Position numbers and translations under genes: made by a program. Source: a virus. Taken from it: a stretch of DNA of 23,887 bases. Numbering within the stretch: position 1 is the first letter of the stretch; the number at the start of each line of letters is the position of its first letter. The DNA is taken from the IMG/VR virus record IMGVR_UViG_3300011008_000259. The stretch is one strand, 5' to 3'. Positions 1,724-7,485 of the stretch are shown here, in pieces. The notes below the pieces were generated by a model that saw only the letters and a program-made list of their open reading frames with translations, made no database searches and was not told the DNA's origin.

Positions 1724-1731
1724 TATTTATA

Positions 1732-1770
1732 ATACCATAAAGAGAAATCTCTATGGTATTATATTTTTAA
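1732..1770 (+). terminator. Rho-independent terminator after the gene ending at 1723
   Basis: Hairpin ATACCATAAAGAG-AAAT-CTCTATGGTAT followed by a T-rich tract. Confidence 0.6.
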
Positions 1771-1845: not shown

Positions 1846-2533
1846 ATGTATGAATTTAATTCTATATAAGAAGTGCTAAGTTACATATTCGAAGATAAGA
1901 ATATTACTATTATTAATATTCCCGGAACTCCTCATCCATGGTTTATTGTAGATGAGATTAGAAATGCGTTAGGATATATTAGAAATGAAGTCTTAGGAGT
2001 TCTAAACATTCACGAATTACGTATTTTATGAAGTCGCACCATGAATGATGGTGCGACTTCATATTTAACTAGTAGAAGTTTTAGATGTTCTAAATATTCG
2101 CGAATTGCATGTTTTAGTAAGTCACCCCATGAATGATGGGGTGACCTCCTATTTAACTAGTATTAGTGCTTATCGTCCGACTGTAATGATTATATCATTA
2201 CCAGGATTATTTGAAATTATAATGCGTTCGAGAATGCCTAAAGCTAGAGAATTTCAGCATTGGCTATATTTCTCTGTATTACCTACACTGTATTATAATC
2301 CTCAACTCGTTCAGCAGATTAATACTTTAAATACTGATCTTCAGCAAAGTAGATATTTAACTAATGCTTATCGTAATGAGTGTATCGATTTACGTAAAGA
2401 GAAGATTAAACTTAATAAAGAAGTTAATTCTCTTAATGAGAAAATCGAAAGCGATGATAATAGTTTTTATGATTTAGCGAATATTTGTCAGTTTTATAAA
2501 GATTTATTAGACGAAAATGGAATTTATTATTAG
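1846..2533 (+). pseudogene. Bro-N (BRO family N-terminal) domain gene disrupted by an in-frame TAA at codon 8 and an 88-bp tandem duplication that frameshifts it
   Basis: ATG at 1846 with SD AGAAGG, then MYEFNSI followed by TAA at 1867-1869. The same frame then continues EVLSYIFEDKNITIINIPGTPHPWFIVDEIRNALGYIRNEVLGVLNIHELRIL and ends at TGA 2029-2031. The C-terminal half of Bro-N (ISLPGLFEIIMRSRMPKAREFQHWLYFSVLPTL) is in the +1 frame inside ORF 2105-2533. Conceptually deleting one 88-bp unit (1999-2086) rejoins the two halves into one continuous Bro-N-like frame. Confidence 0.6.
1999..2174 (+). repeat. Two tandem 88-bp direct repeat units (1999-2086 and 2087-2174), each containing a perfect 10-bp-stem hairpin
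   Basis: Unit 1 contains GTCGCACCAT-gaatg-ATGGTGCGAC and unit 2 contains GTCACCCCAT-gaatg-ATGGGGTGAC. The units are about 85% identical, and the two stem differences between copies are compensatory on both arms. Confidence 0.8.
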
Positions 2534-2547
2534 TTTATAATATATAT

Positions 2548-2590
2548 ATATACTGTAGAGATAACTCTCTACAGTATATTTTGTCTAAAC
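2548..2590 (+). terminator. Rho-independent terminator after ORF 2105-2533
   Basis: Perfect 13-bp stem ATATACTGTAGAG-ataact-CTCTACAGTATAT followed by TTTTG. Confidence 0.6.
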
Positions 2591-2652: not shown

Positions 2653-5385
2653 ATGATGTCAGATATTACTAGCAAACATTTTTATTGTCTGGCTAAAGAA
2701 TCTAATTTATATGTATTAGATCCTTATAAGCATGGAAGAGATAATAAGTTATTATTTTATTCTCATCTTAAAGATGCTATTGATGCTATGCCATCATTTG
2801 CCGAAAATGAATTATATTCTGTATATGTACCTACACTGATAGATAAATTAAAAATACATGATGCTGAATATGGAGTAATGATAGCTACTGAACCGATAAG
2901 AGTGAAATTTTGTGGTTTATGTAGAATAGAAAAAAATAGTGATTATTTTGATAGGTTTGAACAACGTCTTATAGTAGATGAATCTTCTAGAAATCTAGCT
3001 AAAGTTATTAGTGATGAATATAGAGATAATGGACCATTAAAAGATCTTGAAGATTTTAGTTATTTGCTCGATCATACTCCATTAGATAAAATATATTTAT
3101 CATCTGATTGGCATCTATTTAAAGAAAAATATAAAAAAGAAAAGAATAGAGTTAATATAGATAAGATAATAGATTGGTGTCAAGATAATATTAAACCTAG
3201 TGATATATTTATGTATCTTGGAGATATAAGTTATAGATTTGCTTCATTACAAGATCAACAAAAATCTGCTAAAATAATGAAATCTATACCTGGTCATAAA
3301 TGTTTAATACTTGGTAATCATGATGTATTTATTGGGCAAGAATATTATAAAGATGCTGGGTTTGATTATGTATTTGAAGAATATGAATGGAGAAATATAA
3401 TTTTTTCTCATAGGCCATTAAAAATGGAACTTGATAAAGATAAACTTAATATACACGGTCATATGCATGAAGAAGTTACTTATAGAACTAGTAATGGAGA
3501 TCATCATGTTAATGTATATCCTTATTTTTATAATAATAAACCTGTAAATTTAAAATTTATATTAGATCATAAACAAGAATTAATGAAAGACCATGTATGG
3601 GAACCTAACTATGGTTACGGTGAAGGAGCTTTACCTGTGAGGAGTTACTTTCAAACATTGCACAGTTCCTCGGGTAATATTATAATTAATGAGTTGGCTT
3701 CTAGATATGGACGTGAATCTAGAAGATCTGTAGTATATTTCTCTAAAAATATTAATAGTAAAACTATTAAAGATATGATAGAAAAATTATCTATACAGCT
3801 TAAAAATAAAGTTGCTATAAAATTACATTTTGGCGAGAAAGGTAATAAGAATTATCTTAATCCTGAATTATTAAAAGATACTGTAGAATATTTAACTAAT
3901 AAAGATTATGATTATGCTTTAGTAGATTGTAATACCACATATGGTGGTTCTAGAGATACTACTGAGGGACATCTTAAAGTTGCTAGAGAGCATCATTTCT
4001 CTGATAATTATAAAGTAGAGATTTTAGATGCTAATGGTGGTATGACATTAAGTAATCCTGAATATAATAAGATAGAAAAAGAATTAGATAAAATAAATAC
4101 TAAAGAAGATATTAAATTATATCAGTTAAAATCTACACCCGGAATACATATTAAAGAAATTGATATTGGTAGCGGAATAAAAGATTACGGTAGTATGATA
4201 GTATATACCCATTTTAAAGGTCATGAAATGGCTGGATTTGGTGGAGCTATTAAGAATATTGGTATGGGTCTTGCTACTGGAAGAACTGGTAAGATGCAAA
4301 TCCATAGAGATTGGAAATCTGATAATTTATTCTTAGAGAGATTAGTAGAATCTGCTAATACTATAACATCATTCTATGATGGTAAAATGATATTTATTAA
4401 TATATTAGCTAACATATCATTGGAATGCGATTGCCATGGAGATTCTAAAGTGAAACCTGTGATGGACGATATTGGTATTGTTGCTGGTAGTGATATTGTT
4501 GCTGTAGAACAAGCATCTATAGATCTTATTAGAAAAGCTTCTGATAATAAAGAACTTATGGAACAAATATCTAATATCGGAGCTTATCATGCTATAGAGT
4601 ATGCTGAATGGTTAGGAATGGGTAATAGAGAATATATATTAAAAGATATTAATTGTAATAATATTAATATAGATGAATGTATACAAACTCATATGGGTAA
4701 ACATGTAACTGAATCTAGTATAGATGAATCTTTCTTATTATCTGATGATGATTTAATGTATAATTTCGATAAATTTTTATCTGGTGAGACTAATATGGCT
4801 CTTGTAGTAGGATTCTCCGGATCTGGTAAAAGTACTATAAGTGCTGCTATGAAAATGAATTCTAATTTGACTGTATTTTGTTCATTAGATGAATTGATTA
4901 ATATTGCTGATGGATTAATACAATTAAATCAAGCAAGTACTATAATGCAAAAATATTATAATCAAGTCGGAATTAAGCTATTACAATCTAGTGATTATTT
5001 AGATTATTCTTATAAAGCTGTTAATATATATTATTCTTTTATAAAATGGATTGATGATGTTGCTATGCATAGTAGTAATATTAAATTTGTTGTTGAAGGT
5101 CTCTGGCCATTATGTTTTAATGATAGGCCTGAAAGGTTTCAAAATATATGTGTTATTATCAAAGGAACTTCGTGGTTAACATCTACTTATAGAGCAGCTA
5201 ATAGAGATCAAAATAGACAAGATATTATGGCTAGATATGGTATGAAAGTATTTAAAAATGCTTTCCTCCGTTTTATAGAATATATTAAAAATAATTCATA
5301 TAGATTTGATAATAAAGATTTAATGATTAAAAATATAACTAAGTGGAGAGAATATTTTACTGCAAAACAAATAATGAAAAAATAA
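2653..5385 (+). CDS. Large multidomain protein: N-terminal unknown region, calcineurin-like metallophosphoesterase, DUF362-like domain, C-terminal P-loop kinase-like domain (polynucleotide kinase-phosphatase-like)
   Basis: 910 aa; SD AAAGGAG. MPP motifs are SSDWH, YLGDISYR, LGNHD, HRP and HGHMH. The P-loop is GFSGSGKST with a downstream SLDEL, which resembles T4 Pnk-type kinases. The central region carries KLHFGEKGN, THFKGHEMAGFGGAIKNIGMG and CDCHGD, which I remember as DUF362-like patterns. Confidence 0.6.
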   Translation: MMSDITSKHFYCLAKESNLYVLDPYKHGRDNKLLFYSHLKDAIDAMPSFAENELYSVYVPTLIDKLKIHDAEYGVMIATEPIRVKFCGLCRIEKNSDYFDRFEQRLIVDESSRNLAKVISDEYRDNGPLKDLEDFSYLLDHTPLDKIYLSSDWHLFKEKYKKEKNRVNIDKIIDWCQDNIKPSDIFMYLGDISYRFASLQDQQKSAKIMKSIPGHKCLILGNHDVFIGQEYYKDAGFDYVFEEYEWRNIIFSHRPLKMELDKDKLNIHGHMHEEVTYRTSNGDHHVNVYPYFYNNKPVNLKFILDHKQELMKDHVWEPNYGYGEGALPVRSYFQTLHSSSGNIIINELASRYGRESRRSVVYFSKNINSKTIKDMIEKLSIQLKNKVAIKLHFGEKGNKNYLNPELLKDTVEYLTNKDYDYALVDCNTTYGGSRDTTEGHLKVAREHHFSDNYKVEILDANGGMTLSNPEYNKIEKELDKINTKEDIKLYQLKSTPGIHIKEIDIGSGIKDYGSMIVYTHFKGHEMAGFGGAIKNIGMGLATGRTGKMQIHRDWKSDNLFLERLVESANTITSFYDGKMIFINILANISLECDCHGDSKVKPVMDDIGIVAGSDIVAVEQASIDLIRKASDNKELMEQISNIGAYHAIEYAEWLGMGNREYILKDINCNNINIDECIQTHMGKHVTESSIDESFLLSDDDLMYNFDKFLSGETNMALVVGFSGSGKSTISAAMKMNSNLTVFCSLDELINIADGLIQLNQASTIMQKYYNQVGIKLLQSSDYLDYSYKAVNIYYSFIKWIDDVAMHSSNIKFVVEGLWPLCFNDRPERFQNICVIIKGTSWLTSTYRAANRDQNRQDIMARYGMKVFKNAFLRFIEYIKNNSYRFDNKDLMIKNITKWREYFTAKQIMKK

Positions 5386-5494
5386 TATTTTATTATAGTA
5401 ATAACATAAAAAATAATAAAAATCTATTCTCTATTTATCTTATTTAGATTATTATTATTTATATAAATTATTTTAATAAAAAGGAGTCTTAACT

Positions 5495-6190
5495 ATGTTA
5501 GGCGGATATTTAATTAAAGTTGTTCCTGGTAAACTTCCTCAGAAAGTTGCTTCTGGTTTTGATAAGGTTTTTAATGGTTTTACTGGTGCTAGCTATACTC
5601 CCATTGCATATCTCGGTCATCAGGTTGTTAATGGAATTAACCACGCAGTTCTTTGTGAACAGAATCTTGTAACTGCTAAAGATGTTAAGGGTATTGCTAT
5701 TGTCGTTCTTAATGAAAAACCCGGTGATATCGGTGGAGAATCATTAGAGCTTGTTGAGATTAAATCATGCTTCACTGATAAAGGCATGAAACTTGGTGGC
5801 ATTAACATTACTCCTTCAGCAGAGATTCCTGAAGATGCTATGAAAGTTTGGAATAAGCATTTCGGAAGTGGTTTCTTTGGTGCTTCGAATAAACCATTTG
5901 CTCTTCTTGCTACACAGGTTGTTCATGGAGTTGCTTATTTCTATGCTGTTGAATCAACTATGATTGTTTCACCTATTGGGAATGACGGTCTTGTTATGAG
6001 TGCTGGCAATAATAAGTCAATTACTATTGTTAAACTCTTTAGCGAATATCCTGAGATGCAGTCTATGACTATTCTCGAAGGTGTTGAAGATGCTATTCTT
6101 GAGGGTACTGGAGAAGCAGCTCCTGGAGTGCTTGGACCTGTGCTTGTTGATAATCAGAAGAATGTTGTTAAGTACGCTTTTAATTGGTAA
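5495..6190 (+). CDS. Highly expressed 231-aa protein made of two tandem ~95-aa repeats, each with a cystatin-like Q-V-V-x-G motif
   Basis: SD AAGGAG. Repeat 1 is GFTGASYTPIAYLGHQVVNGINHAVLCEQ and repeat 2 is GFFGASNKPFALLATQVVHGVAYFYAVES. Codon usage differs sharply from the neighbours (GC about 38%; frequent CTT, GTT, GGT and CAG). Confidence 0.5.
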   Translation: MLGGYLIKVVPGKLPQKVASGFDKVFNGFTGASYTPIAYLGHQVVNGINHAVLCEQNLVTAKDVKGIAIVVLNEKPGDIGGESLELVEIKSCFTDKGMKLGGINITPSAEIPEDAMKVWNKHFGSGFFGASNKPFALLATQVVHGVAYFYAVESTMIVSPIGNDGLVMSAGNNKSITIVKLFSEYPEMQSMTILEGVEDAILEGTGEAAPGVLGPVLVDNQKNVVKYAFNW

Positions 6191-7431: not shown

Positions 7432-7459
7432 TATTTTTTTATTTATAAAGCTTAAATCT

Positions 7460-7485
7460 AATTTTAATTATATATTATATAATTA
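7460..7485 (+). promoter_or_regulatory. Conserved intergenic motif copy C (AATTTTAATTATATATTATATAATTA) overlapping the upstream terminator stem
   Basis: Same 17-nt core; about 55 nt upstream of the ATG at 7539. Confidence 0.45.

Follow-up and report, generated by a model that had tools for sequence, protein, structure and literature searches.

We analysed a 23,887-nucleotide (nt) stretch of viral DNA (IMG/VR record IMGVR_UViG_3300011008_000259, hereafter the window), following up an earlier note, made from the sequence alone, on a Bro-N gene at positions 1846-2533. This region is a pseudogene, a decayed member of the phage Bro-N (antirepressor-type) multigene family, and contains a tandemly duplicated 88-nt unit with a hairpin in each copy. 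That local finding is ordinary in kind and had been correctly observed. The hairpin itself belongs to the family: Bro-N genes carry a covarying palindrome at a fixed codon position, with positional conservation, covariation and synonymous-site constraint across the genes of diverse phages. The pattern is apparently undescribed so far, as our literature search turned up no paper that connects a hairpin or palindrome with Bro-N genes. On balance, we lean slightly towards a DNA-level palindrome that is kept complementary by arm-to-arm template switching, possibly reinforced by selection, and that would represent a fragile point of the gene.

A Bro-N pseudogene with three lesions

The window has a G+C content of 27%, and every sizeable open reading frame (ORF) lies on the + strand. 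As had been noted, a Bro-N frame opens at ATG 1846, preceded by the ribosome-binding site (RBS) AAGAAGGT (1830-1837, + strand), and meets TAA at codon 8 (1867-1869, + strand), after which it is open again up to TGA 2029-2031. This 5' fragment (1846-2031, + strand) continues in the +1 frame as an ORF at 2105-2533 (+ strand), which encodes the C-terminal Bro-N half (MIISLPGLF...LPTLYYN) followed by a coiled-coil tail, and which alone scores 39.8 bits against the Pfam Bro-N profile (positions 57-96). Gene callers chose internal starts for it (P0013, 103 amino acids (aa); P0023, 134 aa), and an exact-sequence look-up of the 142-aa ORF gave nothing on record. An intrinsic terminator of the Bro-N transcription unit follows at 2548-2579 (+ strand).

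The Bro-N frame is interrupted by the TAA at 1867-1869, the TGA at 2029-2031 and the +1 shift due to the 88-nt duplication, three lesions in all. When they are repaired, the product matches PF02498 with 46.4 bits (cut-off 25.6; profile positions 10-96), and a profile-profile comparison with canonical Bro-N gives a probability of 99.3%. The earlier note had ascribed the inactivation to the duplication; the Bro-N gene is indeed disrupted, but the duplication is one lesion among three. Likewise, the proposal that removing one unit restores a single ORF holds in part only, because deletion of copy 1 alone drops the TGA and the TAA at codon 8 stays either way. The region should be annotated as one Bro-N pseudogene rather than as two small ORFs. 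Stop-codon reassignment was considered and rejected: TGA is neither stop nor sense codon in the 19 long ORFs of the window (which end with TAA in 17 cases, TAG in two and TGA in none), no tRNA genes were found in the window, and reassignment would leave the frameshift uncured.

Protein searches recovered 22 relatives, all of them metagenomic, and DNA was compared for twelve distinct related genes, each of which lies in a related locus designated here by an L number. All twelve have a single 88-nt unit and are collinear with the window's gene, without its lesions; none has an in-frame duplication. The duplication is therefore a lesion and not a coding repeat. At the site of the TAA the relatives have CAA (Gln) and read MYEFNSIQEALNYIFED..., and where copy 1 has TGA and copy 2 GTA they have a Gly codon (GGA or GGG). 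A 21-nt translational bypass at the TAA (from ATA 1864-1866 to ATA 1885-1887) was also rejected, as the homologues encode the intervening QEALNY, and the TAA is therefore a CAA-to-TAA nonsense change.

Damage is not restricted to the window. One relative has TAA at codon 9 (L002, ~2017-2019), another has ACG in place of its ATG start together with an upstream mini-ORF (L003, ~7773-7775), and locus L005 contains one paralogue with a TAA nonsense codon (~3939-3941) and another that is frameshifted within its own hairpin. Pseudogenisation is thus common in this Bro-N family, and the sequences suggest recurrent independent loss of these genes.

DNA searches with the window gave no match among cultured phages, a first scan of JGI metagenomes and a genome scan found no relatives, and a search of IMG/VR for the exact pattern of the hairpin core returned 19 matches, all unrelated chance hits without extended stems. 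The related contigs encode a tubulin homologue, an intein-containing dCMP deaminase, a radical SAM protein and a DEAD/ResIII helicase (L030 1001-2401; L035 5418-5687 and 702-1256; L029 886-2415). Such a gene content is in keeping with an AT-rich phage lineage of large genome size (at least 100 kb), and the one IMG/VR relative measures 106 kb.

The duplication and its two hairpins

A tandem repeat of period 88 spans positions 1987-2162 (2.0 copies, 81-82% identity; Tandem Repeats Finder and a repeat finder). The period and the two copies described in the earlier note stand, whereas its register (1999-2086 and 2087-2174) lies 12 nt too far 3'. Copy 1 (1987-2074, + strand) is the more diverged and carries the TGA, and copy 2 (2075-2162, + strand) is in frame with the 3' ORF and contains no stop codon. 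The copies differ at 16 positions without indels, and each encodes the same peptide in its own frame (EVLGVLNIHELRIL*SRTMNDGATSYLTS in copy 1, EVLDVLNIRELHVLVSHPMNDGVTSYLTS in copy 2). They have in common derived states that occur in no other allele (ATTC.CGAATT, TTTAACTAGTA), and the nearest relative of each copy is the other; the duplication therefore arose in the window's own lineage. An ENA contig (ERZ3810914 NODE_307, 23,949 nt), possibly assembled from the same reads, is identical to the window over 5,533 nt including the duplication. Microhomology flanking the duplication amounts to a match of at most 3 nt in register. Microhomology-mediated slippage at the 8-mer AGTNTTAG, which is found near both borders, was rejected, the 8-mer being 6 nt out of register.

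Hairpin 1 (2027-2063) has a perfect 16-base-pair (bp) stem (2027-2042 with 2048-2063) closed by the loop GAATG (2043-2047), and the TGA at 2029-2031 is located in its 5' arm. Hairpin 2 (2115-2151) has a 10-bp core (2121-2130 with 2136-2145), the same GAATG loop, and three outer pairs past two mismatches. The perfect 10-bp stem with a gaatg loop that had been reported for each unit is thus accurate for the core of copy 2 and for both loops, and too short for copy 1. Both structures were borne out by folding: the predicted RNAs reach -27.4 kcal/mol (z = -8.9 against shuffles) for hairpin 1 and -19.8 kcal/mol (z = -4.1) for hairpin 2, and DNA parameters give z = -10 and -4.7, respectively, both strands folding equally well. 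No other 44-nt fold in the window is as stable as hairpin 1 (-27.2 kcal/mol), which surpasses every intergenic terminator. A simple terminator scan flagged the copy 2 hairpin only, with its tail CTCCTATTTA; copy 1 and the hairpins of relatives such as L003 and L033 have no T-run, and true terminators in the window have runs of 4-5 T. Among Rfam models searched over the window's hairpins, the best match was tsr33, with 23.7 bits against a gathering score of 109.

Instead of the two compensatory stem positions of the earlier note, three pairs differ between copies 1 and 2 (unit positions 43/75, T-A against G-C; 50/68, G-C against A-T; 52/66, A-T against C-G), and two further differences are mismatches present in copy 2 only. 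The hairpin core of copy 2 matches that of the related locus L001 exactly over 26 nt, so that it could be an import by gene conversion, and the compensatory differences between copies may have arisen elsewhere. The stem of copy 1 has been strengthened despite its position downstream of stop codons: at -27.2 kcal/mol it is far more stable than the -11.8 +/- 4.2 kcal/mol expected after nine random substitutions (p ~0.0007). The TGA itself stems from a G-to-T change by which the stem gained a further pair, with an A on the 3' arm.

Conservation of the hairpin in the AT-rich clade

The proposal that the hairpin is kept at the nucleic-acid level gains stronger evidence from the relatives, and from Bro-N genes generally, than from the comparison of the two copies. 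In the twelve related units the hairpin occupies the same codon register, in a gap-free alignment of 49 columns, and the distance from its centre to the downstream MIIS(L/E)PG motif is 56 nt in copy 2 of the window and in nine clade relatives (by subtraction of coordinates). Applied to these twelve units, a 16-pair structure is paired in 84.9% of cells, compared with 35-45% after a shift of the 3' arm by 1-3 columns. Changes on both sides are seen in 14 of the 16 pairs, and 0/500 shuffles reached any of the observed measures. The stems are nonetheless highly dissimilar among clade members, as in AAATCCGAGACCCCAT (L003, 17 bp), GAACTCACCATAT (L032) and AATTTGCAA (L035). In eight genes, the native hairpins are 4-7 standard deviations more stable than synonymous recodings. 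Other paralogue clades have unrelated stems at the equivalent spot (AGCTTCCCCCA/TGGGGGAAGCT in L004, AGAAGTTCTTGGC/GCCAAGAACTTCT in L035 and TTGCTTGTGATA/TATCACAAGCAA in L033). In an AlphaFold model, no loop of the domain has a lower confidence than the one formed by the hairpin-encoded residues (74-84 of P0001).

Translation from the ATG of the loop was also considered. Gene callers use this internal start (P0006, P0023), and in some relatives it follows a GGAG or GAGG element that resembles a Shine-Dalgarno (SD) sequence, but it was not taken as an explanation because the pattern is inconsistent across the family. A second intragenic hairpin of moderate stability (-16 kcal/mol) was observed in another paralogue clade, in the SAKTSPRIGDFWYW segment downstream of the ISLPG motif, where it is conserved between two contigs (L032 405-448 and L033 269-312).

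An equivalent palindrome in canonical Bro-N genes

Distant canonical Bro-N genes, found by chance, had stems of 9-10 bp, and for this reason 80 canonical loci were collected from IMG/VR, from phages with a GC content of 35-73% (66 distinct genes; 79 used in the register test and 78 in the permutation test). A perfect stem of at least 8 bp (maximum 12) is present within the 87 nt upstream of IISEPGLY in 30/66 distinct genes, compared with 6/66 for the preceding 87 nt and 1/66 for the following 87 nt. The centres of all 30 stems fall 10.7-11.8 codons before IISEPGLY, the canonical centre being 35 nt upstream. When the register is anchored on the protein motif, nine pairs in 79 genes are Watson-Crick in 69.6% of cases, against 27.1 +/- 7.7% in other registers. 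Synonymous permutation within each of 78 genes lowers pairing to 47.4 +/- 1.2%, against 69.2% observed (z = 17.7).

The canonical consensus, AAGGGT-N5-loop-N5-ACCC(T/C)T, encodes D-E-K-G-[VT]-[H]-x-[VIM]-[DS]-T-P-G-G-x-Q, whose variable residues covary as reverse-complement codons (V/D, T/S, H/V or H/M, and G/P). By profile-profile alignment, the hairpins of the AT-rich clade and of canonical genes share one inter-element loop, which is ~20 residues longer in the AT-rich clade. Cultured phages with the hairpin include Gordonia BearBQ, Acinetobacter Ab105-2phi, Lactococcus D4840 and Pseudomonas CF74b, and it is weaker in Staphylococcus, Streptococcus and Paenibacillus phages. The window contains a canonical member as well: the intact paralogue at 18435-19223 (+ strand), already recognised in the earlier note, comprises Bro-N plus ANT/KilAC domains and has an imperfect canonical hairpin, AAAGGGGGCGCAT-AAA-GTGAGCACCCTT, centred at 18601 and Watson-Crick at 7/9 of the tested positions, 3 to 11 nt either side.

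A search of 20 related or canonical loci gave no Rfam family over the hairpin. Matches above gathering scores to the C4 antisense RNA (RF01695, one locus) and to sRNA-Xcc1 (RF02221, two loci) were observed directly upstream of canonical Bro-N genes (L051 377-449; L079 410-496; L071 453-541), and these sequence matches suggest that such antirepressor-type genes may be under RNA control similar to that of P1 immI.

Rearrangements clustered on the hairpin

In three pairs of related genes (L001/L003, L033/L037 and L035/L032) the flanks are 93-100% identical, whereas a patch of 60-95 nt centred on the hairpin is only 33-67% identical. Downstream of the L001 gene, between the Bro-N stop codon and the terminator, lies a partial second unit (676-760) with arms identical to those of the main copy, a 5-nt loop that is exactly inverted (GAATG to CATTC), and a 3' flank resembling the L003 allele. 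In L005 (UViG_3300011008_000045), a third Bro-N/KilAC paralogue (4847-5700; P0022) has a +1 frameshift in the poly-C of its own hairpin, where seven C face six G in the stem, and the same truncated product is present in an ENA contig. Patch swaps, loop inversion, poly-C frameshift and the 88-nt duplication of the window all fall on the hairpin.

Origin and maintenance of the palindrome

The reading towards which we lean starts from the GC-rich palindrome that Bro-N genes generally carry in the variable-loop segment just upstream of the IIS(E/L)PG strand and that folds as an 8-17-bp hairpin. Arm-to-arm template switching or short-tract gene conversion would fix a change on both arms at once; template switching would also lengthen stems and could flip the loop, and selection for a cis function may reinforce complementarity. 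The secondary structure would turn this segment into a fragile, recombinogenic point of the gene, where in the window the 88 nt around the hairpin would have been duplicated in tandem, shifting the frame by +1, and a later G-to-T change in copy 1 would have produced one more base pair and the TGA together. Slippage through the hairpin, as suggested in the earlier note, is a plausible route to the duplication.

Template switching is reported to homogenise arms and extend stems, to introduce compensatory changes of several bases and to invert spacers (PMC8794818, PMC8604942), and matching footprints are present here in the inverted spacer of the L001 remnant, the stem extended to 16 bp in copy 1 and the both-sided changes of the clade; from these we infer the mechanism. 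A process acting on DNA is favoured because G·T is not in excess (7 against 8 A·C in the clade, and likewise no bias in the canonical set, where the outer stem positions are confounded in this count by conserved K...P codons), because both strands are equivalent, because the L001 loop is inverted, and because copy 1 was strengthened while non-coding. Quasi-palindromes are template-switch hot spots in E. coli, in phage T4 rIIB, in yeast and in rRNA stems (PMC8794818, PMC8604942, PMC7202029). Like them, the Bro-N palindrome displays compensatory multi-base changes, homogenised or extended arms, an inverted spacer (L001 remnant), frameshifts and duplications at the repeat, strand equivalence and no G·U bias. 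Unlike them, it stays at one fixed codon position over very distant phages despite full turnover of the stem, a persistence undescribed for mutational hot spots that suggests an added selective reason.

Several observations weigh against this explanation. Positional conservation across distant phages is the outcome expected from selection for function, and a purely mutational self-maintaining palindrome is without demonstrated persistence over such divergence. Sense-strand G·U pairs are found in cultured-phage stems (two in Acinetobacter, one in Lactococcus), fitting a role as RNA. Several intact members have lost the hairpin (L007, L005-4071 and L032-364), and whatever role it may have is therefore dispensable. 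Finally, the duplication is not flanked by any direct repeat of useful length, and its mechanism is accordingly conjectural.

The same facts bear on the alternative that the hairpin is a selected cis-acting RNA element of the Bro-N mRNA, the duplication being an accident under already relaxed selection. Such an element could act as an elongation brake, an RNase entry or protection site, a leaky attenuator or an internal-start gate, and would hold the dose of an antirepressor-type, potentially toxic protein low. The fixed position, covariation and synonymous-site constraint in diverse phages are as expected of it, as they are of cis-regulatory hairpins within ORFs in general, with which the Bro-N hairpin also has in common an amino-acid choice shaped by pairing. 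In addition to the G·U pairs of some cultured-phage stems, the 5' arm resembles an SD sequence (AAGGG), an in-frame ATG or GTG often opens the 3' arm, the copy 2 hairpin was flagged as terminator-like, and both non-coding copies (copy 1 of the window and the L001 remnant) are still within the transcription unit. Canonical Bro-N genes are moreover already targets of RNA control, C4 or sRNA-Xcc1 lying just upstream in three loci. In P1/P7 immI, the C4 antisense RNA (RF01695) controls antirepressor genes through sites near the 5' end of the operon. The likeness concerns RNA-level control of Bro-N/KilAC antirepressor genes; C4 does not act on the intragenic hairpin considered here, and no C4-like RNA was found in the part of the window scanned (1700-2700). 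Against an RNA element stand the overall G·U count, which does not exceed A·C and sets the hairpin apart from cis-regulatory ORF hairpins, as does the failure to match any Rfam model; the inverted loop of the L001 remnant; the missing U-tract after the stem in relatives such as L003 and L033; and the existence of intact genes without the hairpin. We regard an RNA element as possible but rather doubtful, and rank the template-switching DNA palindrome above it. Put more broadly, a selected cis-element may be built into the sequence encoding the Bro-N domain and travel with it as the domain is shuffled, either as an autoregulatory site for the nucleic-acid-binding Bro-N protein or as a universal expression brake, and pairs of loop residues would then be dictated by the need for both to use reverse-complement codons. 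To this broader reading we give a somewhat better, still tentative, chance.

The remaining explanations fare far worse. Complementarity as a by-product of protein constraint, with paired residues of a beta-hairpin using reverse-complement codons, accounts for part of the signal, as amino-acid identity alone gives 47% pairing against 27% in random registers; synonymous positions, however, add 22 percentage points (z = 17.7), and these synonymous-site tests exclude protein constraint alone. The covarying pairs (V/D, P/R, G/P, T/S, H/V-M) also track the complementarity of codons rather than the chemistry of side chains, non-coding copies keep or even improve their pairing, and the encoded residues are those of the least confident AlphaFold loop, all of which makes this explanation extremely improbable. 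Hardly more credible is a small mobile palindromic element, of the miniature inverted-repeat transposable element (MITE) or Rickettsia palindromic element type, inserted in frame into genes. Rickettsia palindromic elements are palindromic repeats inserted in frame in genes, and the Bro-N segment resembles them as a translated palindrome in a protein region that tolerates variation; the extra partial copy in non-coding DNA downstream of the L001 gene and the hairpin-centred patches exchanged between genes could be read in the same way. Yet apart from that adjacent remnant neither the window nor ~60 kb of related loci contain copies beyond the Bro-N genes, so that the unit, unlike the Rickettsia elements, is not scattered over unrelated genes, no terminal repeats or target duplications were seen, and the position relative to the protein motif is fixed in all clades, the canonical one included, which argues for vertical inheritance with the domain and not for insertion. 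An assembly artefact concatenating two strain variants of a variable segment is very unlikely as well: coverage in the ENA assembly is low (~5x) and the hairpin segment is hypervariable between strains, but the junction needs spanning reads, two assemblies agree base for base, and the copies are mutually closest, with derived states found in no other allele. Programmed bypassing of the T4 gene 60 type, finally, would take off at TTA 2026-2028 and land at TTA 2114-2116, 88 nt downstream, to yield a full-length single-unit Bro-N protein (junction HELRIL/VSHPMNDG; predicted peptide HELRILVSHPMNDG). As in gene 60, a repeated codon is followed by a stop codon at the base of a stable stem-loop, here a TGA directly 3' of the take-off codon within the 16-bp stem 2027-2063; a second stem-loop follows just past the landing site, the joined product would be uninterrupted Bro-N sequence, and gene 60-like and UUA-linked cases exist in phages (PMC5462505, 10.1101/2022.08.31.505936, PMC10732093). 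However, a tandem repeat automatically supplies matching take-off and landing codons, the TAA at codon 8 blocks translation from the sole RBS-linked start, the insert is absent in 12/12 relatives, no SD-like element precedes the landing site on its 5' side, and the 88-nt gap is far above the 50 nt of gene 60, so that we give bypassing next to no credence.

Other features of the window

A conserved, AT-rich, promoter-like motif of 34 nt (TTAAATC.TTTTTTAATT[AG]TATATTATATAATTA) lies 5' of the Bro-N pseudogene (1787-1820, + strand; direct-repeat families D2 and D3), and the repeat finder located further copies in the window at 105-138, 7452-7485 and 17382-17420. It precedes several genes of the window as well as homologous genes in related contigs (L002 ~1935-1970; L003 ~7680-7715; L005 ~3650-3690; L007 upstream of 1601), and it probably serves as an early or middle promoter of the phage itself. 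Beside this motif, at the borders of gene cassettes, recurs a terminator stem-loop, CCATAGAGAGAAATCTCTATGG, with a covarying variant, CCTAGAGAGAAATCTCTAGG (window 1730-1770 and 18376-18416; L001 ~797-820; L002 ~1885-1910; L007 ~1482-1512 and 2067-2096). In T4-type phages, promoter/stem-loop cassettes mediate the shuffling of modules, and the terminator/promoter borders of the window resemble them.

The window also encodes, at 7539-10004, an 821-aa protein that matches PF11978 (Major Vault Protein shoulder domain, 1e-23) and PF17795 (vault repeat), which is unusual for a phage. Two giant multidomain proteins (2653-5385 and 10840-14604) have in common a paralogous phosphoesterase module of ~360 nt (repeat families D4-D7), to which one adds DUF362 and the other GNAT acetyltransferase and transglutaminase-like domains.

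Implications for Bro-N genes

Bro-N/antirepressor-type genes are among the commonest accessory genes of phages, with 1,318 matches to a query for the domain among 50,697 records of cultured phages. With a palindrome at one fixed codon position, these genes would be subject to an unrecognised layer of constraint or regulation that is conserved through complete sequence turnover and shapes the protein sequence. It would account for the mosaicism of Bro-N genes, their frequent breakage and their hypervariable patch, and the family would offer a natural system in which to test the self-maintenance of palindromes by template switching against selection. Should the palindrome instead be a selected cis-element, it would amount to a widespread constraint of nucleic-acid structure on the protein encoded by a very common phage gene family.

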